DNA of 20,767 bases from a virus. The DNA lies in UHGV virus genome UHGV-2126844; one strand, given 5' to 3'. The translations under genes were made by a program, and so were the position numbers. Numbering within the stretch: the first letter of the stretch is position 1; every line of letters begins with the position of its first letter. Positions 1,316 to 20,767 of this stretch are shown here, piece by piece. The notes under the pieces are model-generated. The model searched no databases. It had not been told where the DNA came from and saw only the letters and a program-made list of their open reading frames with translations.

Positions 1316-1420
1316 AATCCGTTGAAGCCTGCTTTTTTATACTAAGTTGGCATTATAAAAAAGCATTGCTTATCAATTTGTTGCAACGAACAGGTCACTA
1401 TCAGTCAAAATAAAATCATT
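1316..1420. other. attL: Prophage attL (B-O-P'): lambda core at 1331-1345, then P' arm with IHF-like site (1371-1383) and Int arm-type repeats (about 1393-1423)
   Basis: Exact 15-bp lambda common core GCTTTTTTATACTAA. Left flank (gaagcct) matches the bacterial B arm; right flank (gttggcattataaaaaagcattgcttatcaatttgttgcaacgaacaggtcactatcagtcaaaataaaatcatt) matches the lambda P' arm. int lies immediately adjacent. Confidence 0.88.
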
Positions 1421-2489
1421 ATTTGATTTCAATTTTGTCCCACTCCCTGCCTCTGTCATCACGATACTGTGATGCCATGGTGTCCGACTTATGCCCGAGA
1501 AGATGTTGAGCAAATTTATCGCTTATCTGCTTCTCATAGAGTCTTGCAGACAAACTGCGCAACTCGTGAAAGGTTGGCGGATCCCCTTCGAAGGAGAGAC
1601 CTGATGCTTTTCGTGCGCGCATAAAATACCTTGATACTGTGCCGGATGAAAGCGGTTCACGACGAGTAGATGCAATTATGGTTTCTCCGCCAAGAATCTT
1701 TTTGCATTTATCAAGTGTTTCCTTCATTGATATCCCGAGAGCATCAACATGCAATGTTGTTGGGATGGCAATTTTTACGCCTGTTTTGCTTTGCTCGACA
1801 TAAAGATATCCATCTACGATATCAGACCACTTCATTTCGCATAAATCACCAACTCGCTGCCCGGTAACAACAGCCAGTTCCATTGCAAGTCTAAGCCAAC
1901 ATGGTGATGATTCTGCTGCTTGATAAATTTTCAGGTATTCGTCAGCCGTAAGTCTTGATCTCCTTACCTCTGATTTTGCAGCGCGAGTGGCTGCGACCGG
2001 GTTTGTTGTTATATGGCCTTCAGCCATAGCCTCTCGGAATGCATCGCTCAGTGTTGATCTGATTAACTTGGCTGATGCCGCCTTTCCCTCGTCTATGTAT
2101 CCATTGAGCATTGCCGCAATTTCTTTTGTGGTGATGTCTTCAAGTGGAGCATCAGGCAGACCCCTCCTTATTGCTTTAATTTTGCTCATGTAATTTATGA
2201 GTGTCTTCTGCTTGATTCCTCTGCTGGCCAGGATTTTTTCGTAGCGATCAAGCCATGAATGTAACGTAACGGAATTATCACTGTTGATTCTCGCTGTCAG
2301 AGGCTTGTGTTTGTGTCCTGAAAATAACTCAATGTTGGCCTGTATAGCTTCAGTGATTGCGATTCGCCTGTCTCGGCCTAATCCAAACTCTTTACCCGTC
2401 CTTGGGTCCCTGTAGCAGTAATATCCATTGTTTCTTATATAAAGGTTAGGGGGTAAATCCCGGCGCTCATGACTTCGCCTTCTTCCCAT
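1419..2489 (-). CDS. int: Lambda-type tyrosine integrase Int (356 aa)
   Basis: Full-length ORF ending at the P' arm. Translation matches lambda Int as recalled (MGRRRSHERRDLPPNLYIRNNGYYCYRDPRTGKEFGLGRD...; catalytic region HELRSLSARLY ... LLGHKSDTMASQYRDDRG). Confidence 0.97.
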   Translation of the reverse strand: MGRRRSHERRDLPPNLYIRNNGYYCYRDPRTGKEFGLGRDRRIAITEAIQANIELFSGHKHKPLTARINSDNSVTLHSWLDRYEKILASRGIKQKTLINYMSKIKAIRRGLPDAPLEDITTKEIAAMLNGYIDEGKAASAKLIRSTLSDAFREAMAEGHITTNPVAATRAAKSEVRRSRLTADEYLKIYQAAESSPCWLRLAMELAVVTGQRVGDLCEMKWSDIVDGYLYVEQSKTGVKIAIPTTLHVDALGISMKETLDKCKKILGGETIIASTRREPLSSGTVSRYFMRARKASGLSFEGDPPTFHELRSLSARLYEKQISDKFAQHLLGHKSDTMASQYRDDRGREWDKIEIK

Positions 2490-2685
2490 TTCTGATCCTC
2501 TTCAAAAGGCTACCTGTTACTGGTCGATTTAAGTCAACCTTTACCGCTGATTCGTGGAACAGATATTCTCTTCCATCCTTAACCGGAGGAGGGAATATCC
2601 TGCATTCGCGCACCCATCGACGAACTGTTTCAAGGCTTCTTGGGCGTCGCTGGCGAGCGTTCCACTCCTGAAGTGTCAAGTACAT
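2467..2685 (-). CDS. xis: Excisionase Xis (72 aa)
   Basis: 72-aa ORF overlapping the int start, as in lambda. Translation MYLTLQEWNARQRRPRSLETVRRWVRECRIFPPPVKDGREYLFHESAVKVDLNRPV... matches lambda Xis as recalled. Confidence 0.95.
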   Translation of the reverse strand: MYLTLQEWNARQRRPRSLETVRRWVRECRIFPPPVKDGREYLFHESAVKVDLNRPVTGSLLKRIRNGKKAKS

Positions 2686-2711
2686 CGCAAAGTCTCCGCA
2701 ATTACACGCAA

Positions 2712-2733
2712 GAAAAAACCGCCATCAGGCGGC
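2712..2733 (-). terminator. Candidate rho-independent terminator on the minus strand (stem ccgcc/ggcgg, loop tgat, then UUUUUUCUU) overlapping the stop of the 55-aa ORF, just upstream of xis
   Basis: Read directly: plus strand aaaaaaccgccatcaggcgg; the minus-strand RNA forms a GC hairpin followed by a U-run. Strength and function not tested. Confidence 0.45.
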
Positions 2734-2892
2734 TTGGTGTTCTTTCAGTTCTTCAATTCGAATATTGGTTATGTCTGCATGTGCTATCTGCGCCCATATC
2801 ATCCAGTGGTCATAGCAGTCATTGATGTTCTCTGCTTCGATAACTCTGTTGAATGGTTCTCCATTCCATTCACCTGTGACTCGGAAGTGCAT
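2725..2892 (-). CDS. Small 55-aa ORF in the position and length of lambda's unnamed ORF upstream of xis
   Basis: ATG at 2892 preceded by GGAG; translation MHFRVTGEWNGEPFNRVIEAENINDCYDHWMIWAQIAHADITNIRIEELKEHQAA. Below the 60-aa cut-off of the supplied track; found by manual translation. Offset from int/xis matches my recollection of the lambda map. Confidence 0.55.
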   Translation of the reverse strand: MHFRVTGEWNGEPFNRVIEAENINDCYDHWMIWAQIAHADITNIRIEELKEHQAA

Positions 2893-2974
2893 TTATCATC
2901 TCCATAAAACAAAACTCGCCGTAGCGAGTTCAGATATAATTTCCACCAAAGGCAGTAGTTGCTGATGCTAAGAA

Positions 2975-5228: not shown

Positions 5229-5446
5229 TTCGAACCTCTCTGTTTACTGATAAGTTCCAGATCCTCCTGGCAACTTGCACAAGTCCGACAACCCTGAACG
5301 GCCAGGCGTCTTCGTTCATCTATCGGATCGCCACACTCACAACAATGAGTGGCAGATATAGCCTGGTGGTTCAGGCGGCGCATTTTTATTGCTGTGTTGC
5401 GCTGTAATTCTTCAATTTCTGATGCTGAATCAATGATGTCTGCCAT
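5225..5446 (-). CDS. orf73: TraR/DksA-family C4 zinc-finger protein (73 aa), lambda Orf73-like
   Basis: 73-aa ORF with CxxC...CxxC (CCECGDPIDERRRLAVQGCRTCASCQ), characteristic of TraR-like RNA-polymerase-binding proteins. Size and position between the ea22 region and exo match lambda orf73 as recalled. Confidence 0.8.
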   Translation of the reverse strand: MADIIDSASEIEELQRNTAIKMRRLNHQAISATHCCECGDPIDERRRLAVQGCRTCASCQEDLELISKQRGSK

Positions 5447-5495
5447 CTTTCATTAATCCCTGAATTGTTGGTTAATACGCTTGAGGGTGAATGCG

Positions 5496-5522
5496 AATAA
5501 TAAAAAAGGAGCCTGTAGCTCC
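5496..5522 (-). terminator. Candidate rho-independent terminator on the minus strand (stem ggagc/gctcc, then UUUUUUAUUAUU) between the 5545-5826 ORF and orf73; possibly a tL-type terminator of the early-left operon
   Basis: Read directly: plus aataataaaaaaggagcctgtagctcc; minus RNA hairpin followed by a U-run. Identity with a named lambda terminator not verified. Confidence 0.45.
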
Positions 5523-5544
5523 CTGATGATTTTGCTTTTCATGT

Positions 5545-5826
5545 TCACCGTTCCTTAAAAACGCCGTTTAACATGCCGATTGCTAGACTTAAATGAGTCG
5601 GTGTGAATCCCATCAGCGTTACCGTTTCGCGGTGCTTCTTCAGTACGCTACGGCAAATGTCATCGACGTTTTTATCCGGAAACTGCTGTCTGGCTTTTTT
5701 GATTTCAGAATTAGCCTGACGGGCAATGCTGCGAAGGGCGTTTTCCTGCTGAGGTGTCACTGAACAAGCCCCATGTCGGCAAGCATAAGCACACAGAATA
5801 TGAAGCCCGCTGCCAGAAAAATGCAT
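5545..5826 (-). CDS. Hypothetical early-left ORF (up to 93 aa; true start uncertain) in the orf61 region
   Basis: Track ORF ending ...ETVTLMGFTPTHLSLAIGMLNGVFKER. Overlapped in another frame by a 27-aa hydrophobic ORF (MTTTECIFLAAGFIFCVLMLADMGLVQ, 5757-5840) that is start/stop-coupled to orf63. I could not reconcile either frame with lambda orf61 from memory. Confidence 0.35.
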   Translation of the reverse strand: MHFSGSGLHILCAYACRHGACSVTPQQENALRSIARQANSEIKKARQQFPDKNVDDICRSVLKKHRETVTLMGFTPTHLSLAIGMLNGVFKER

Positions 5827-5836
5827 TCAGTGGTTG

Positions 5837-6028
5837 TCATACCTGGTCTCTCTCATCTGCTTCTGCTTTCGCCACCATCATTTCCAGTTTTTGTGAAAGG
5901 GATGTGGCTAACGTATGAAATTCTTCGTCTGTTTCTACTGGTATTGGCACAAACCTGATTCCAATTTGAGCAAGGCTATGTGCCATCTCGATACTCGTTC
6001 TTAACTCAACAGGAGATGCTTTGTGCAT
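5837..6028 (-). CDS. Lambda orf63-like small protein (63 aa)
   Basis: 63-aa ORF. Position and length relative to exo match lambda orf63 as recalled; the sequence itself was not recalled independently. Confidence 0.55.
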   Translation of the reverse strand: MHKASPVELRTSIEMAHSLAQIGIRFVPIPVETDEEFHTLATSLSQKLEMMVAKAEADERDQV

Positions 6029-6183
6029 ACAGCCCCTCGTTTATTATTTATCTCCTCAGCCAGCCGCTGTGCTTTCAGTGGATTTCGGATAACAGAAAGG
6101 CCGGGAAATACCCAGCCTCGCTTTGTAACGGAGTAGACGAAAGTGATTGCGCCTACCCGGATATTATCGTGAGGATGCGTCAT
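6001..6183 (-). CDS. Lambda orf60a-like small protein (60 aa)
   Basis: The ORF overlaps the exo start by 4 nt when started at the ATG at 6183 ([29 protein letters not shown]...). The track's 62-aa version starts two codons upstream. Length and position match lambda orf60a as recalled. Confidence 0.55.
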
Positions 6184-6860
6184 CGCCATTGCTCCCCAAA
6201 TACAAAACCAATTTCAGCCAGTGCCTCGTCCATTTTTTCGATGAACACCGGCACCATCTCGTCAAAACTCGCCATGTACTTTTCATCCCGCTCAACCACG
6301 ACATAATGCAGTCCTTCACGCTTCATACGCGGGTCATAGTTGGCAAAGTACCAGGCATCTTTTCGTGTCACCCACATGCTGTACTGCACCTGGGCCATGT
6401 AAGCCGACTTTATGGCCTCGAAACCACCGAGCCGGAACTTCATGAAATCCCGGGAGGTAAACGGGCATTTCAGCTCAAGGCCATTGCCGTCACTGCATAA
6501 ACCATCGGGAGAGCAGGCGGTGCGCATACTTTCGTCGCGATAGATGATCGGGGATTCAGTAACATTCACGCCGGAAGTGAATTCAAACAGGGTTCTGGCG
6601 TCGTTCTCGTACTGTTTTCCCCATGCCAGCGCCTTAGCATTAACTTCCGGAGCCACACCGGTGCAAACCTCAGCCAGCAGGGTGTGGAAGTAGGACATTT
6701 TCATGTCAGGCCACTTCTTTCCTGAGCGGGGCTTGGCTATCACGTTGTGAACTTCTGAAGCGGTGATGACGCCGAGCCGTAATTTGTGCCATGCATCATC
6801 CCCCTGTTCGACAGCTCTCACGTCGATCCCGGTACGCTGCAGGATAATGTCCGGTGTCAT
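6180..6860 (-). CDS. exo: Lambda exonuclease (Red-alpha), 226 aa
   Basis: Full-length ORF; translation [65 protein letters not shown]... matches lambda Exo as recalled. Confidence 0.96.
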
Positions 6861-7300
6861 GCTGCCACCTTCTGCTCAGTGGCTTTCTGTTTCAGGAATC
6901 CAAGAGCTTTCACTGCTTCGGCCTGTGTCAGTTCTGACGATGCGCGAATGTCGCGGCGAAATATCTGGGAACAGAGCGGCAATAAGTCGTCATCCCATGT
7001 TTTGTCCAGGGCAATCAGCAGAGTGTTAATCTCCTGCATGGTTTCATCGTTAACCGGAGTAATGTCGCGTTCCGGCTGACGTTCTGCGGTGTATGCGGTA
7101 TTTTCGACAATGCGCTCGGCTTCATCCTTGTCATAGATACCAGCAAATCCGAAGGCCAGACGGGCACACTGAATCATGGCTTTATGCCGTAACATCCGTT
7201 TGGGATGCGACTGCCACGGCCCCGTAATTTCTCTGCCTTCGCGGGTTTTGAATGGTTCGCGGCGGCATTCATCCATCCACTCGGTAACGCAGATCGGATG
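6857..7300 (-). pseudogene. bet: 5'-truncated bet (Red-beta): only about the C-terminal 140-145 codons remain; homology ends near 7300 with an in-frame TAG immediately upstream
   Basis: Minus-frame translation ...NHPICVTEWMDECRREPFKTREGREITGPWQSHPKRMLRHKAMIQCARLAFG...KATEQKVAA matches the C-terminal half of lambda Bet. Upstream of about 7300 the sequence is unrelated and AT-rich. Confidence 0.85.
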
Positions 7301-7462
7301 ATTACCGGTTCGCTACCAGGGAAGAACGGGAAGGAAAGGTGAGCACGAATCTGATTTTCAAGGAGTGTCGCCAGAGTGCCGCGATGAAGCGGGTGTTGGC
7401 ATTTTATCGCGGCAATTTTCAATAGACTATGTACATAAAAATATCATTTTTTTAATACATGT

Positions 7463-7654
7463 CTAATTATTGGACGAAATTGGTTTTTGCTTTGGTTTAG
7501 TTAGCCTAGCAATCAAGCCAGAGGCAATAATGATGATCCAAGCAATTTGATGCAATGCTACTCCAATATAAGAACCTTTATAGATAATAAAGGCATAGAT
7601 CGCTAGAAACGAAATAAATATCCATAACGAAAGTTGATAAATTTTGGCGCGCAT
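7463..7654 (-). CDS. Small hypothetical two-helix membrane protein (63 aa from ATG; 68 aa from an upstream TTG)
   Basis: Two strongly hydrophobic segments (IYQLSLWIFISFLAIYAFIIY; IAWIIIIASGLIARL) and a Lys-rich tail. Weak RBS. Sits in AT-rich inserted DNA, divergent from the lipoprotein operon. Confidence 0.35.
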   Translation of the reverse strand: MRAKIYQLSLWIFISFLAIYAFIIYKGSYIGVALHQIAWIIIIASGLIARLTKPKQKPISSNN

Positions 7655-7910
7655 ATTTAATCCAATCAATCAGAAAGACGAGTAATCATAGAGGTACTAT
7701 CACCCGGGTAACTATTGCTATTATGAACGGATAGGATAGAGGCTTCAATAACATATGCATCAAGTATGATGGAATATGTAGGTGAAAATGACTTGTGTCA
7801 AATTTGTGGAAATGAGTACCATGTTTCTCTGAAATTGATGTCGTTAATGGCTAGTGATAGTGAACTTTTTTACTTTATAATTCCTTTGGTTATAACAATA
7901 AGGTAAATTT

Positions 7911-11172: not shown

Positions 11173-12255
11173 TTAGAACTGGTAAACCATACCTACAGCA
11201 ACGATATCATCGGTAGCAACGCCAGATGCTTTCGTGAAATCGCTCTTATCAATCAGGTTGATTTTGTAATCAACAAAAGTGGACATATTTTTGTTGAAGT
11301 AATAGGTTGCACCTACATCAATATATTCAACCAGGTCCTGATCACCCCACGCACCCAAGTCTTTTCCTTTAGATTGCAGGTAAGCAACGGACGGACGCAG
11401 ACCGAAGTCGAACTGATATTGTGCAACTACTTCGAAGTTTTGTGCTTTGTTGGCAATATGGTTATTACCAAAAACAGTCATGTTCTGGGTTTCAGAATAG
11501 GTGGTAGCCAGATAGATGTTGTTCGCATCATATTTCAGACCAGCTGCCCATACTTCAGCATTTTGACCAGATGCATTCAGGCTGTTGTTACCGTAGATAA
11601 CCTGATTATTAGTGCGGTCAGATTTAGCATAGGTTGCACCTACACCGAATCCTTCATACTCATAAGTAGTGGAGAAACCGAAACCATCACCATTAGCTTC
11701 AGTTACGTCAGTGCGGTCATTTTTACCCTGATACTGAGCAGCAAAGTTCAGACCATCAACCAGACCAAAGAAGTCATTGTTACGATAAGTTGCAACACCT
11801 GTGGTGCGACCAGTCATGAATACATCTGTTTGGGTCCAGGTATCGCCACCGAATTCTGGCAGAACGTCGGTCCATGCACCAATATCGTATGCTACACCGT
11901 AGTTACGGCCATAATCGATGGAGCCGTAGTCACCGAATTTCAGGCCAGCGAAGGCAAGACGGGTTTTATCTTTGGAGGAACCTTGAGATTCAGCGCGGTT
12001 GCCTTTGAATTCATATTCCCACTGACCGAAACCAGTCAGTTGATCGTTGATTTGGGTTTCACCTTTGAAGCCAAGACGGGCATAAGTAGTATCACCATCA
12101 TCTGCATCATTAGAGGAGAAGTAGTGCTTAGCATTAACTTTCCCGTACAGATCCAGCTTGTTACTGTCTTTATTATAAATTTCAGCTGCCTGAGCAGACA
12201 TCGCCATCAGTACTGATGCAGCTACAGCAGAAATTGCCACTGTTAATTTTTTCAT
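11173..12255 (-). CDS. nmpC: OmpC/OmpF-family general porin NmpC, apparently intact (360 aa precursor)
   Basis: Start taken at [23 protein letters not shown] (signal peptide); ends ...VAVGMVYQF with the C-terminal Phe typical of porins. Uninterrupted frame. Lies opposite in orientation between Q and the lysis genes. Confidence 0.9.
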
Positions 12256-12681
12256 CGTGAGCCCTTTTTTTGAACTATTATTAAAAAATGATGTCACTGC
12301 GCGATAAATATTCATCTAATCAATGTGATTATTTCAAGATGTAAGTTTTGGTTTCTCATTTGATTTGTGAAGTAGATCTCTATTTTTATCTGAACTTTTT
12401 CTATCGAATCCTATTCATGGCTCTTGGCTGAATAAAAATAAATCTATTAGCCAATTTATATTAATGGCTGTTATTTATAAGTGCTCTATAATTTGAAGAT
12501 TCAATTTAAACCAGCTAAAAATAACGCTGGAAATTATTTGTTGGTTATTTGTTGAGATTTGCTTATGTATTTGTAGTGGTGTTTTCAATACTCGGTAGCA
12601 TTCTCGCAAATATCATTTAGTGGTTTACGTACGTAAAAAATTGGTTATGCTGTTAAGAGTGGTTACTTCGTCACACAGCTT

Positions 12682-14044: not shown

Positions 14045-14338
14045 TTATTGTGAGCAATACACACGCGCTTCCAGCGGAGTATAAATGCCTAAAGTAATAA
14101 AACCGAGCAATCCATTTACGAATGTTTGCTGGGTTTCTGTTTTAACAACATTTTCTGCGCCGCCACAAATTTTGGCTGCATCGACAGTTTTCTTCTGCCC
14201 AATTCCAGAAACGAAGAAATGATGGGTGATGGTTTCCTTTGGTGCTACTGCTGCCGGTTTGTTTTGAACAGTAAACGTCTGTTGAGCACATCCTGTAATA
14301 AGCAGGGCCAGCGCAGTAGCGAGTAGCATTTTTTTCAT
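14045..14338 (-). CDS. borD: Bor lipoprotein (serum-resistance family), 97 aa
   Basis: MKKMLLATALALLITGCAQQTFTVQNKPAAVAPKETITHHFFVSGIGQKKTVDAAKICGGAENVVKTETQQTFVNGLLGFITLGIYTPLEARVYCSQ matches lambda Bor as recalled. Confidence 0.9.
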   Translation of the reverse strand: MKKMLLATALALLITGCAQQTFTVQNKPAAVAPKETITHHFFVSGIGQKKTVDAAKICGGAENVVKTETQQTFVNGLLGFITLGIYTPLEARVYCSQ

Positions 14339-16280: not shown

Positions 16281-16905
16281 GGAAGTCAACAAAAAGCAGC
16301 TGGCTGACATTTTCGGTGCGAGTATCCGTACCATTCAGAACTGGCAGGAACAGGGAATGCCCGTTCTGCGAGGCGGTGGCAAGGGTAATGAGGTGCTTTA
16401 TGACTCTGCCGCCGTCATAAAATGGTATGCCGAAAGGGATGCTGAAATTGAGAACGAAAAGCTGCGCCGGGAGGTTGAAGAACTGCGGCAGGCCAGCGAG
16501 GCAGATCTCCAGCCAGGGACTATTGAGTACGAACGCCATCGACTTACGCGTGCGCAGGCCGACGCACAGGAACTGAAGAATGCCAGAGACTCCGCTGAAG
16601 TGGTGGAAACCGCATTCTGTACTTTCGTGTTGTCGCGGATCGCAGGTGAAATTGCCAGTATTCTCGACGGGATCCCCCTGTCGGTGCAGCGGCGTTTTCC
16701 GGAACTGGAAAACCGACATGTTGATTTCCTGAAACGGGATATCATCAAAGCCATGAACAAAGCAGCCGCGCTGGATGAACTGATACCCATAGTATTAGCG
16801 GGACTGCAAATAGTGCCGGTGCGCACCAACACAAGAGTTCCGGTGCATTTGGTGGCACGAACACGAGCATTTTCCCTAATGGTTATACCGCGATTTCAAA
16901 TCTAA
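16279..16905 (+). pseudogene. nohD: Terminase small subunit Nu1/NohD, C-terminally truncated: homology for about 170 codons to about 16789, then reads out of frame into tail-fibre DNA
   Basis: MEVNKKQLADIFGASIRTIQNWQEQGMPVLRGGGKGNEVLYDSAAVIKWYAERD...KAAALDELIP matches lambda Nu1; after ELIP the ORF diverges (IVLAGLQIVPVRTNTRV...) where lambda has GLLSEYIEQSG. No terminase large subunit follows. Confidence 0.82.
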
Positions 16906-17165
16906 GCGCGGGGATTATGAGCACAACAAGCGGTAGTGGCCAGACTCGTAATGCAGGGAAGACATCATCAGATGGTGCTCATACCCACTCGCTGTCCGGC
17001 ACTGCTGCAAGCGCAGGCGCACATGCACATACTGTCGGTATTGGTGCTCATACGCACTCCGTTGCGATTGGCTCACACGGACACACCATCACCGTTAACG
17101 CTGCTGGTAACGCGGAAAACACCGTCAAAAACATCGCATTTAACTATATTGTGAGGCTTGCATAA
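16790..17165 (+). pseudogene. 3' fragment of a side-tail-fibre gene (lambda Stf-like C-terminus with His-x-His repeats), joined to nohD by deletion
   Basis: In-frame translation ...[101 protein letters not shown]; no start codon and no N-terminal fibre domains. Confidence 0.72.
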
Positions 17166-17746
17166 TGGCATTCAGAATGAGTGAACAACCACGGACCATA
17201 AAAATTTATAATCTGCTGGCCGGAACTAATGAATTTATTGGTGAAGGTGATGCATATATTCCGCCTCATACAGGTCTGCCAGCAAACAGTACCGATATTG
17301 CACCGCCAGATATTCCGGCTGGCTTCGTGGCTGTTTTCAACAGTGATGAGTCATCGTGGCATCTTGTTGAAGACCATCGGGGTAAAACAGTTTATGACGT
17401 GGCATCAGGGGACGCGTTATTTATTTCTGAACTCGGCTCATTACCGGAAAATGTTACCTGGTTATCCCCGGAAGGGGAGTTTCAGAAGTGGAACGGCACA
17501 GCCTGGGTGAAGGATACGGAAGCAGAAAAACTGTTCCGGATCCGGGAGGTGGAAGAAACAAAAAACAGCCTGATGCAGGTAGCCAGTGAGCATATAGCGC
17601 CGCTTCAGGATGCTGTGGATCTGGAAATCGCAACGGAGGAAGAAACCTTGTTGCTGGAAGCCTGGAAAAAGTATCGGGTATTGCTGAACCGTGTTGATAC
17701 GTCAACTGCACAGGATATTGAATGGCCAGTAGCACCTATAGGGTAA
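17165..17746 (+). CDS. tfa: Tail-fibre assembly protein Tfa (193 aa)
   Basis: [62 protein letters not shown]... matches lambda Tfa as recalled; start overlaps the stf stop (TAATG). Confidence 0.9.
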
Positions 17747-18604
17747 ATTCGTAATGATTACCTAAATACGTTATTCTTTTGTTCAAAAAGTGATTTTGCT
17801 ATAGATAGGGAGTATGTTCTTGGATTAAGAATAAAAATCGCCATGAAAGAGCTTCATGGCGAGTACATAAACGTACAAAATGTGATGAAAGTAGAGTGGC
17901 GTAAGCCACTATATTAAGATGTGACAATAGCGAAGAAAAGTAAATAACATTTTATGGACGTTTAATTGTTAATTATAAAAACTAGAGTGCCCGATATTGT
18001 TTACCTTGCTTTAAAATAATGTACTCAAACCAAATTTTTGAGCTAAAAGCTCAAATAATATAAATGCAATAATAATGTTTAATAAGACAATTAGCTTGCT
18101 TTGTATTTTCATTTCGGAATACTGTTAAGTAACTTTGATGACCCTAACAATAGATCGGAATTTTCTTAGAGTCAATGGTCACTGTTTTTGCTTGCAAAGC
18201 AAATGTTTTGGTGGTTATAAGTTGTCTTAATATAGTCACGCATGCAACTTGTTCCATGCGGAGATTAAAGATTGGAATATAACGCTAAGATGGAATTAAA
18301 TTACATTTGCAATAATCAATTTATTATTACGCAATAATTACCGATATTATTATTGTAAATTAATCATTAGAGTGCAAAAAGAAATGTAACGGCAAAATAA
18401 GAGGACGATAGCTGAGAAAAAAGCGTGCTTTCCCAATCTGGGGCAAATCACGTCTGAATGACACCTGAAAACAGGTGGTAGCCTCAAGAAGGCTTGGAAT
18501 ATTCTTCTTTAATGTTATGTAATTCATTGATTTTTCGTGTACGATTTAAAGACATTTATTCCAAGAAAAATTTTTAACTCTTTGATTTTTCGACTCTGTA
18601 TCAT

Positions 18605-18666
18605 CGGTCTCGAAAACCGGAGTAGGGGCAACTCTACCGGGGGTTCAAATCCCCCTCTCTCCGCCA
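18605..18666 (+). tRNA. Partial tRNA-Ser (3' about 62 nt: anticodon arm with CGA anticodon, long variable arm, T-arm, 3' acceptor strand and CCA); the 5' 30 nt are absent, so not a functional gene
   Basis: CGGTCTCGAAAACCGGAGTAGGGGCAACTCTACCGGGGGTTCAAATCCCCCTCTCTCCGCCA matches the 3' two-thirds of E. coli tRNA-Ser(CGA) as recalled. No complementary 5' acceptor strand (GGAGAGA) upstream. Confidence 0.75.
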
Positions 18667-19250
18667 CTTTATCAATGACTTATCTCCCGACTTCCCGCCT
18701 TGCTTTTCCTAAACAGAACAATCGTAGAATATTCTTGAAGGGTTAGATCGTCACTGTTTTCTGTTCGATACTGTGACATTCAGCACTTGATTCGCTATGG
18801 ATCTGACAGGAAGGTTTTGAGCGAAAATTTGCAGTTATTCAGTCGTTTTCTTATCGGTCACCATTATTCTTTTAGACATTGATCCTACAAAGCTGCCGCA
18901 AAGTTGGTGGTGGGAACTGAAGTTGCGTAGAGAAGGGGTCAATACCCGGAGGCAAACATGGGCTGGCAAAAGTGTAGCGGTATTAGGCGCAGCTATTTAG
19001 CCTAGTTATGTTTTATGAAAACTTGATATCATATAAGTGTCTTACTTATTGGCTGTAAATAAGTTTTTCCTAAGGAATTGTTTCTTGAGTATCATTTGTA
19101 ACTGTAACGGAATTTATAATCCTTTGCTTTATTGTTACGGTATTTTTTATCACACCCTATTTTTTATGTGGTTTTTTATACTGAAGTTTGGCAAAGTGAA
19201 CTTTATATGCATATACTTCATCCTGGTTTCAGTTAAGTTGGGTGGATGAT

Positions 19251-19994
19251 ATGGCAACTACATGTTCAGTTATATTGATTTTGGAGTCCTTTGATGTTTA
19301 TTTCGGAAAAGAGAGTGTGTTTCTGGAGAGAGGTTCATCTGTACTTGTCGACTCTAGCTCTAGAGATTTTTTCCTGACATATCCTGAAAGAGTGATAGTG
19401 GCGGATTTTGGCGCTGAGTTTATTAGTCGCTATTTGAAAGCTAATAACTTAAGGGATATTTCTGATTGTAGGGAATATCCATCTTATTTAAAAATAAACT
19501 TTGCTGACTTCAGTTTAATTAAAGGATTAATTAGTTGGGCTAATCACTGTGCTGAATACATAGAAATTTTTGATGAGTCTATTGCTTTTACATGTCTCTC
19601 TGCATTTTCTTCTGAAAAACAATTTGGAGTATTTCTGTTTGAATGTTTGAAAAGCACAGGGGCTAAAGTTAAAACGATTATTCATACGGATTTATCTGCA
19701 CCATGGCGTCTTAAGGATATATCATCAAGATTATATCTCAGCGAAAGTTTACTAAAGAGGAAATTGAAAGAAGAGGGGGTATCATTCAGTAAGATCATAC
19801 TTGATGAGAGGATGCAAATGGCTGAATATTTACTCAGCACTCGTTGTTATCCTATTAGTAAAGTAGCTAAGGTCTGTGGTTATGCCAGTGTCTCATACTT
19901 TACTTATGTATTTAGACGTTATTTTGGTGTTTCTCCAAGTCAATACTCTCAGAGCAGTTCAGAAAGTAAAATTCTTACTCACCAGGGAATCTGA
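19251..19994 (+). CDS. AraC/XylS-family transcriptional regulator (about 247 aa), AppY/EnvY-like
   Basis: C-terminal double helix-turn-helix typical of AraC proteins (WRLKDISSRLYLSESLLKRKLKEEGVSFSKIILDERMQMAEYLLSTRCYPISKVAKVCGYASVSYFTYVFRRYFGVSPSQY). Recognisably related but not identical to AppY as recalled. Long AT-rich leader. Start may instead be the GTG at 19242. Confidence 0.78.
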   Translation: MATTCSVILILESFDVYFGKESVFLERGSSVLVDSSSRDFFLTYPERVIVADFGAEFISRYLKANNLRDISDCREYPSYLKINFADFSLIKGLISWANHCAEYIEIFDESIAFTCLSAFSSEKQFGVFLFECLKSTGAKVKTIIHTDLSAPWRLKDISSRLYLSESLLKRKLKEEGVSFSKIILDERMQMAEYLLSTRCYPISKVAKVCGYASVSYFTYVFRRYFGVSPSQYSQSSSESKILTHQGI

Positions 19995-20035
19995 TCATTG
20001 TTCTTGCCCCCTTATTTCCAGACAGGGGGTGTATC

Positions 20036-20503
20036 TTAAGTTAACGTTACCCGCTGACGTCGATATTCTCGCGGAGAGCGATAACCCAACGCACTGTGCG
20101 GATGGTTTTCATTGTAATGTTCGATCGCCACTGCAAGATTATGCAATGCCGTTCTTACATTCGGTTTCGGCATGAACGCGATGTAGTCTTCCTTCATCGT
20201 TTTCACGAACCTTTCTGCCATTCCATTACTCTGAGGACTGCTGATTGCCGTTGTGCAGGGCTCCAGATTCAACTCTCTGGCGAACTGCCATGTTTCATGC
20301 GCTCTATACGCTGAACCGTTATCTGTCAGCCACTGGATGGACTGTTCCGGTACTTTATCGCCAAAGCGTTTTTCTATCGCTCCTAACATGACATCCTGCA
20401 CTGTCGCTTTATCGTAACCTCCCGTGCTTGCGGCCCAGTCTATGGCTTCACGATCGCAACAGTCCAGGGCGAACGTAACACGCAGTTTTGAATCGCCACG
20501 GGT
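20036..20503 (-). pseudogene. IS3-family transposase OrfB fragment (C-terminal integrase/DDE core, about 155 codons, no start)
   Basis: Open frame [48 protein letters not shown]...[22 protein letters not shown]. The upstream part is missing; the frame is closed by TAA at 20504-20506. Confidence 0.72.
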
Positions 20504-20551
20504 TTAACAGACACCTCAGAGTCATTTAAGATGGCTTAAAGAGAGGTGCCC

Positions 20552-20767
20552 ATGAGCGGTAAGCGTTATCCCGAAGAGTTTAAAACTGAAGCAGTCAAAC
20601 AGGTTGTTGATCGCGGTTATTCTGTTGCCAGCGTTGCAACACGTCTCGATATCACCACCCACAGCCTTTATGCCTGGATAAAGAAGTACGGTCCGGATTA
20701 CTCCACTTTTTCATCAAGCCAATCCGCCCACCACTGCATCATTTCTCTGCGCTTATCGAGATACTGA
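20552..20767 (+). CDS. IS3-family transposase OrfA (HTH N-terminal part, 71 aa to a TGA at the window end); may be truncated or frameshifted
   Basis: MSGKRYPEEFKTEAVKQVVDRGYSVASVATRLDITTHSLYAWIKKYGPD is a typical IS3-family OrfA helix-turn-helix. The tail (YSTFSSSQSAHHCIISLRLSRY) does not look like the usual leucine-zipper region. Confidence 0.65.
   Translation: MSGKRYPEEFKTEAVKQVVDRGYSVASVATRLDITTHSLYAWIKKYGPDYSTFSSSQSAHHCIISLRLSRY

Follow-up and report, generated by a model that had tools for sequence, protein, structure and literature searches.

A tRNA-Ser fragment in an mEp332-like prophage is probably a displaced serU attR junction captured with host DNA

The window analysed here is the whole 20,767-nt stretch of the virus genome UHGV-2126844. 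The left prophage end, adjoining ybhC, was marked by an exact match to the lambda att core (GCTTTTTTATACTAA; 1331–1345, + strand) in attL, which confirmed the lambda site named in a preliminary description of this DNA. Next to it lies a gene for a lambda-type tyrosine integrase of 356 aa (1419–2489, − strand), identified from the list of open reading frames, the annotation of the close relative RM10410 (L001), collinearity with the int gene of mEp332 and matches to tyrosine-recombinase families. This was the only integrase in the window, and no second or serU-type integrase was found there in the reading-frame list. mEp332 is a plaque-forming lambdoid phage of K-12 belonging to the lambda immunity group (PMC3442831). 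When the two sequences were aligned, window 1330–2936 corresponded to mEp332 1–1607 (99.2%) and window 16783–20767 to mEp332 41994–45979 (98.5%). Compared to mEp332, the window lacks about 22 kb of head and tail genes, so the prophage is defective. The deletion joint (16783–16787) fuses the small-terminase (nohD) region, which corresponds to mEp332 as far as 19972, to a tail-fibre gene that matches mEp332 from 41994 on, and other genomes carry different deletions at the same spot. We also observed two further genes, one for an OmpC/NmpC-like porin (11173–12315, − strand) that separates Q from the lysis genes, and one for a bor/iss-type lipoprotein (14045–14338, − strand) located after Rz; this layout resembles DLP12 and is the same in mEp332.

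In the right part of the window, positions 18605–18666 (+ strand; CGGTCTCGAAAACCGGAGTAGGGGCAACTCTACCGGGGGTTCAAATCCCCCTCTCTCCGCCA) were identical at all 62 positions to nucleotides 29–90 of the 90-nt K-12 serU tRNA-Ser(CGA), from the 5′ strand of the anticodon stem to the CCA (E = 3e-23 in a search of 28 Gb of E. coli genomes). Allowing up to three mismatches, we found no match anywhere in the window to the 5′ 28 nt of serU, nor does the window hold a second copy of the anticodon stem-loop. These results agree with the original description of a 3′ part reaching from the anticodon stem through the CCA with no 5′ half; an intact 5′ half nearby, which had been named as a finding that would speak against it, was absent from the window at the same stringency. 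ARAGORN called no tRNA gene in the window. Rfam gave no tRNA for the fragment at the gathering threshold or at E ≤ 1, and the sole match below threshold, on the opposite strand, was to a plastid family and seems to reflect no more than a likeness between that family and a tRNA-Ser complement. A functional tRNA or a known RNA family was rejected because neither ARAGORN nor Rfam gave anything usable. The fragment lacks the complete cloverleaf and the pair of acceptor strands of a tRNA gene, and it was annotated as the identity block of a serU attachment site and not as a gene. In phage SerU-LTIIb (KU052038), the same 62-nt piece was annotated by its depositors as a tRNA-Ser pseudogene beside yodB. 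Tyrosine integrases commonly cross over in the anticodon loop of tRNA genes, and a block that starts at the anticodon stem fits this habit.

Directly to the left of the fragment is an AT-rich phage arm (17747–18604, + strand; 31% GC) that would represent the P arm of a serU-type attachment site, the same DNA being present at the phage side of genuine serU attR junctions. At these junctions the match to the arm starts at 18410 in one genome (L002) and at 18482 in SerU-LTIIb, and it extends over the full length in the avian pathogenic E. coli (APEC) strain E12049 (L046). The O157:H7 prophage Sp14 (L003), which carries espJ and tccP and lies beside yodB, matches the arm from 18554, and thus the final 50 bp are conserved even there. 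The collinearity with the serU locus of APEC E12049 covers window 16960–18944 (1986 bp, 97.0%). It starts in the 3′ end of the tail-fibre gene and takes in the tail-fibre assembly gene (17165–17746; the two together 16960–17746, + strand), the arm and the tRNA part with its flank; its last position is precisely 18944, and zinT comes next in APEC E12049. In addition, the arm contains an 18-nt direct repeat, TAAYTCWTTGATTTTTCG, at 18520–18537 and 18575–18592 (+ strand), with 89% identity and a spacing of 55 nt, and these copies may be candidate arm-type sites of a serU-type integrase. In the tail-fibre assembly gene, a full-length match to the Rfam small RNA candidate family IS009 was found at 17508–17706 (+ strand; 218 bits against a gathering score of 117). 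It falls wholly within the 3′ part of the gene and may simply reflect a conserved coding segment of lambdoid tfa genes.

The right side of the fragment was then compared with native serU loci. The preliminary description had let the match end at the CCA; the 62-nt tRNA part held, but homology to the K-12 serU locus passes the CCA and ends at 18944, giving a match of 340 bp (18605–18944, 97.4%). The 278 bp after the tRNA part (18667–18944, + strand), contiguous with it in the K-12 match, are the serU–yodB spacer, that is, the chromosomal flank downstream of serU, and would form the B′ arm as captured host DNA. All native serU loci sampled from the 5400-genome set stopped matching the window at 18944. 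The following 56 bp (18945–19000, + strand) matched the ends of IS630-family transposase genes, and alignment to a full copy identified them as the right terminus of an IS630-family element that is internally truncated and has kept its terminal inverted repeat. Since these 56 bp are an internally cut IS630 terminus, the joint at 18944/18945 is illegitimate, connecting the host spacer to the interior of the element. The host DNA is thus contiguous with a former attachment site at one end and bounded by an illegitimate junction at the other, and this arrangement was found in the phage genomes of mEp332, PhiR70_1 and ev099.

Farther to the right is a gene for an AraC/XylS-family regulator (19251–19994, + strand), whose product is identical at 245 of 247 aa to that of the only AraC-family gene of O157:H7 Sp1/CP-933H. 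From its position and identity we infer that this gene is patE. PatE is encoded by z0321 on OI-8/CP-933H (PMC10877973; PMC3681947) and activates acid-resistance genes (PMC10877973; PMC3681947; PMC10057817). It is followed by a C-terminal fragment of an IS2-like (IS3-family) transposase (20036–20472, − strand; NCBIfam IS2 TnpB, 4.9e-53) and by an N-terminal fragment of an IS3-family transposase within the phage b region (20546–20767, + strand), identified from the RM10410 annotation and the mEp332 match. Upstream of patE, a 25-nt stretch at 19168–19192 (+ strand; TGGTTTTTTATACTGAAGTTTGGCA) resembles the lambda att core and the first bases of the P′ arm, with 22 identical positions and two gaps. 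Its score was reached by one of 300 shuffled sequences, placing it marginally above shuffles, and the stretch could be a chance likeness in AT-rich DNA or a decayed lambda-type att site.

We found that the fragment and its neighbours belong to known phage genomes. Window 17747–19240 is 98.9–99.3% identical in the sequenced lambdoid phages mEp332, PhiR70_1 and ev099, where the serU block is placed between tfa and the lambda-type attP and int. In ev099 the order is tail fibre, assembly gene, serU block, AraC gene, transposase fragments, integrase and excisionase, the last two being of lambda type. The mEp332 record begins at the lambda core, carries the serU block 2.3 kb before its end and encodes only the lambda-type integrase. 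Single phage genomes of 46–49 kb therefore hold the tRNA fragment, patE and the IS remnants together. In RM10410, lambda attL and attR cores bracket the whole element, and the attR core is followed by the right arm of lambda attB at L001 22588, before ybhB and about 225 bp past the end of the window. The preliminary description had offered the fragment as the boundary of a separate AraC and IS island and had suggested that the window spans two elements; neither proposal is compatible with the presence of the block, about 99% identical, in three lambdoid phages and with attachment sites that enclose the element as a whole. The co-occurrence in single phage genomes and the bracketing att cores instead point to one element. 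By sequence comparison, the window holds one deleted mEp332-like prophage with a mosaic right arm, in which the tRNA fragment, patE and the IS remnants are b-region cargo. The tRNA fragment is thus no basis for splitting this region into two islands or for inferring a tRNA integration site here.

The arm of a serU prophage on the left and the serU–yodB spacer on the right argue for an attR-type junction of a serU-integrating lambdoid prophage, in line with the earlier suggestion that the fragment is the type of scar left by integration into a tRNA gene. The identity block is the 3′ part of the tRNA from the anticodon stem and has the same extent as the SerU-LTIIb pseudogene. The surroundings are those of a lambda-att prophage between ybhC and ybhB with a lambda-type integrase only. 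As there is no serU location, no partner attL and no serU-type integrase at the other end, the window fragment would be a displaced attR and not a working one. Window 17747–18944 is thus best read as a displaced attR-type junction made up of the P arm, the 62-nt identity block and the B′ host arm. In K-12, pauD, ptwF and pawZ are attR tRNA pseudogenes at the ends of tRNA-integrated prophages or islands. The attR pseudogenes of SerU-LTIIb and of O157:H7 Sp14/CP-933U share with the window the 62-nt block as well as what flanks it, phage arm to the left and host spacer to the right. Such pseudogenes sit at the native tRNA locus beside the chromosome, whereas the window fragment is left with only 278 bp of flank and travels in phages with other integration sites, namely the lambda site in the window and thrW in O157. 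It also differs from phage-encoded tRNA genes, which are likewise tRNA-derived sequence in a phage genome, in that it retains only the 3′ 62 of 90 nt, forms no cloverleaf, escapes tRNA finders and has a mutated T-loop in many copies. The feature itself is of an ordinary kind; its location is what is unusual.

We wanted to know how widely the block is distributed. The junction of flank, IS630 remnant and patE upstream region occurred in 537 of the 5426 complete E. coli genomes, and 30 IMG/VR contigs had it as well. The preliminary description had named membership in a known conserved sequence as a finding that would count against its reading; this holds in part, the fragment lying within a 1.87-kb block in those 537 genomes. 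An exact 22-mer across 18944/18945 had no match in the genomes of one representative per species, a scan that detects exact matches only and covers the representatives of other species alone, the E. coli representative evidently being one without the block. O157:H7 shares the block over 18604–20472 (99.4% identical, with its right end at 20472), which there occupies the right end of the thrW-integrated Sp1/CP-933H, with the P4-like Sp2 coming directly after it. The displaced copies examined (window, RM10410, O157 Sp1, mEp332 and ev099) had one flank haplotype and an identical joint, and this haplotype differs from five native serU flanks, including that of O157 itself. The shared haplotype and joint argue for a single capture event, and the comparison points to subsequent spread. 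We also searched with a chimeric query consisting of intact serU, its flank and the truncated IS630 element, and none of the 5426 genomes contained it, a search that is blind to the same junction at a serU already holding a prophage; no intermediate of the capture was thus seen among them. With this result we rejected the possibilities that the patE block is native to serU or that an mEp332-like phage had integrated by homology at an empty serU.

Based on these data, we consider it very probable that the fragment is a displaced serU attR junction that was captured with 278 bp of host DNA and is now a passive fossil in a lambda-att phage lineage. In this model, which is reconstructed from the alignments, the ancestor of the right arm of the phage would have sat integrated at serU, about 1.2 Mb from the present locus. 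One recombination event would have moved the right end of the serU prophage, together with a little adjoining host DNA, into the b region of a lambda-att phage, between tail fibres and attP, and this recipient would already have had an IS630 element upstream of patE. The right-hand crossover would be the illegitimate one, from host spacer to IS630 interior at 18944/18945, while the left-hand crossover was probably homologous and took place in shared tail-fibre genes. The event would have followed the logic of lambda-bio specialised transduction, through aberrant excision or homology-facilitated illegitimate recombination, and its product would be a viable phage lineage that includes mEp332, PhiR70_1 and ev099. 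The window would then be a lysogen of this mEp332-like lineage at the lambda site, which later lost its approximately 22 kb of head and tail genes. Both the order of events and the type of recombination are our reconstruction. The second integration event of the preliminary description stands insofar as an event other than that at the lambda site is indicated, but it would have happened at serU and not at this locus.

Specialised transducing phages of the lambda-bio type arise by aberrant excision. As in these phages, the host DNA of the window is contiguous with a former attR and has an illegitimate far junction. Unlike them, the window lineage is natural and fixed, its payload is tiny and non-coding, and the phage is not defective. 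Moreover, a different, intact lambda-type attP and int lie to the right of the captured DNA, and one-step excision of the lambda-bio kind would therefore be insufficient, so that at least one extra recombination or a different route would be needed. A homologous crossover in the tail-fibre genes, combined with an illegitimate crossover between the serU–yodB spacer and IS630, would be the most economical route.

We next considered whether the copies decay. The GTTC of the T-loop, at fragment positions 40–41, had T-to-G changes giving GGGC or GGTC in 10 of the 30 viral-contig copies, and thus the invariant T-loop bases of a tRNA gene are not kept among the displaced IMG/VR copies. TT was changed to GG in eight contigs (L020, L024, L025, L027, L028, L031, L034 and L037) and T to G in two (L032 and L036), mostly on the second of the two left arms described below. 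Recurrence of the identical two-base change probably reflects a single variant passed on by descent. The fragment was truncated in one of the 30 viral-contig copies, and two IS1 variants had lost 18495–19044 and 18495–19237, respectively, and kept patE. A 462-bp query (18405–18866) found only two places in the genomes most like the window, the window copy and presumably serU, indicating that these genomes have no partner site and no serU prophage. Collectively, the tRNA piece looks like an inert, passive fossil, with no role as an RNA gene and dispensable for both the prophage and patE.

The same block is joined exactly at tRNA position 29 to two unrelated left arms. The type-A arm is that of the window and 8 of the 30 viral contigs, the type-B arm, which follows a GIY-YIG gene as in O157 Sp1, is that of 21 of the 30, and each arm occurs at true serU attR junctions as well. 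Counted from the CCA, the first discriminating SNP comes after about 110 nt. The 62 nt and this first part of the flank hold no discriminating SNPs, and SNPs therefore do not separate a homologous from a site-specific arm swap; the two-arm pattern fits either homologous exchange in the 62 nt plus the first approximately 110 nt of flank or the action of a serU integrase at the core. A related rearrangement was seen in E. coli EC7 (L014, NZ_CP060963.1; about 5360–7730, between thrW and pao), where the type-B GIY-YIG arm is followed by only the 16-nt anticodon stem-loop, cggtctcAaaaaccg, and the remainder of the tRNA fragment, like the patE block, has given way to a gene for a retron Ec67-family reverse transcriptase. 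It is a cargo swap exactly at the att core.

The presence of two left arms at the exact tRNA boundary could mean that the site is recombinationally active rather than purely passive. The displaced junction would then be a portable serU att site or a 340-bp homology patch, at which serU-type integrases or RecA swap right arms. We regard such a live junction as possible but unlikely, and hold it equally doubtful that prophages at serU, thrW and the lambda site pass the acid-resistance cassette with patE to one another through it. It would account for one block, with the same joint and haplotype, on unrelated arms that meet it precisely at position 29; the break in EC7 falls after the anticodon stem-loop, where an anticodon-loop crossover is expected; and the P arm keeps a direct repeat that resembles arm-type sites. 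However, ordinary homologous recombination in the 62 nt and the adjoining flank explains the arm swaps equally well, no tandem of a serU-type integrase beside a displaced copy was seen, in the genomes closest to the window there is no serU prophage as a source of the enzyme, and the copies decay. If the site were active, it would offer a concrete route of module exchange between prophages of different integration specificity and would explain both the one block on two unrelated arms and the retron cassette of EC7 at the tRNA core.

The other readings have far less in their favour. That a tRNA gene was the integration target at this very locus, or that the fragment is a seam between a lambda prophage and an AraC and IS island, with the window holding two integrated elements, is in our view very improbable: the fragment is indeed a genuine integrase-type scar, and to its right lies DNA of mixed composition and history (host spacer, IS630 remnant, patE and IS3 remnants), but all of it occurs inside the single 46–49-kb phage genomes and between lambda attL and attR, the flank is serU–yodB spacer and not ybhC–ybhB DNA, and the window has neither a second integrase nor a repeat of the fragment. 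Phage genomes from Klebsiella, Citrobacter and Escherichia carry the same 3′ block of tRNA-Ser (matches of 77–84 nt), and in Citrobacter phage Chris1, the one inspected, the block is an attP beside an integrase, which raised the idea that the fragment is the attP of a tRNA-Ser-integrating phage and a second functional attachment site. In Chris1, however, host identity ends about 3 nt after the CCA and the integrase gene is 48 nt away, whereas the window continues into 278 bp of host spacer and has no integrase adjacent to the fragment. An attP, in which host identity is confined to the core with phage DNA and int beyond it, was rejected in this comparison, and we find the idea scarcely credible. 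Just as improbable is a function at the RNA level, whether the fragment were expressed as a tRNA-derived fragment, acted as a decoy for anticodon nucleases or served patE as a terminator or regulatory element. The window copy is perfectly conserved and lies upstream of patE on the same strand, but without the 5′ acceptor strand and the D arm it cannot fold as a tRNA, every Rfam family scored below threshold for the fragment, the T-loop is mutated in a third of the viral-contig copies, and the IS1 deletion variants retain patE. In addition, no terminator-like site was found on the + strand between 17700 and 19300, which led us to reject a serU terminator insulating patE, and the promoter scan placed a promoter-like site at 19188–19217, upstream of patE and downstream of the tRNA fragment.

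The displaced serU junction matters for the annotation of mobile elements. That a displaced tRNA fragment marks the end of an island is a general principle (PMC4383910), and island finders that use tRNA fragments as ends would misplace a boundary in about 10% of complete E. coli genomes, including that of O157:H7 OI-8. It is also a clear case from nature in which a temperate phage carries part of a former integration site together with its host flank. A single capture at serU would be the source of the right arm that mEp332-like phages and O157 Sp1 have, an arm that includes the sequence immediately before the virulence-associated patE. Physically, the fragment belongs to the patE cassette of the lambdoid right end, one of the b-region ‘moron’ cassettes with AraC-like regulators such as PatE, PsrA/PsrB and AppY (PMC10057817). 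It differs from these in not being a cargo gene; it is a by-product of the assembly of the phage end and can be lost without loss of patE. The papers on PatE and mEp332 that we found make no mention of the serU fragment, the searchable literature being incomplete.

The surroundings of the block were also inspected in O157:H7 Z1816 (L008, 18360–21247 of the locus). There the IS2-like fragment closes the patE block, and immediately after it comes the integrase of the P4-like Sp2. Among the genes of Sp2 are an ‘ABC-three component system’ and others of the psu/ogr type. In O157:H7, Sp1 is thus arranged in tandem with Sp2 at thrW, and the serU relic lies near their seam.
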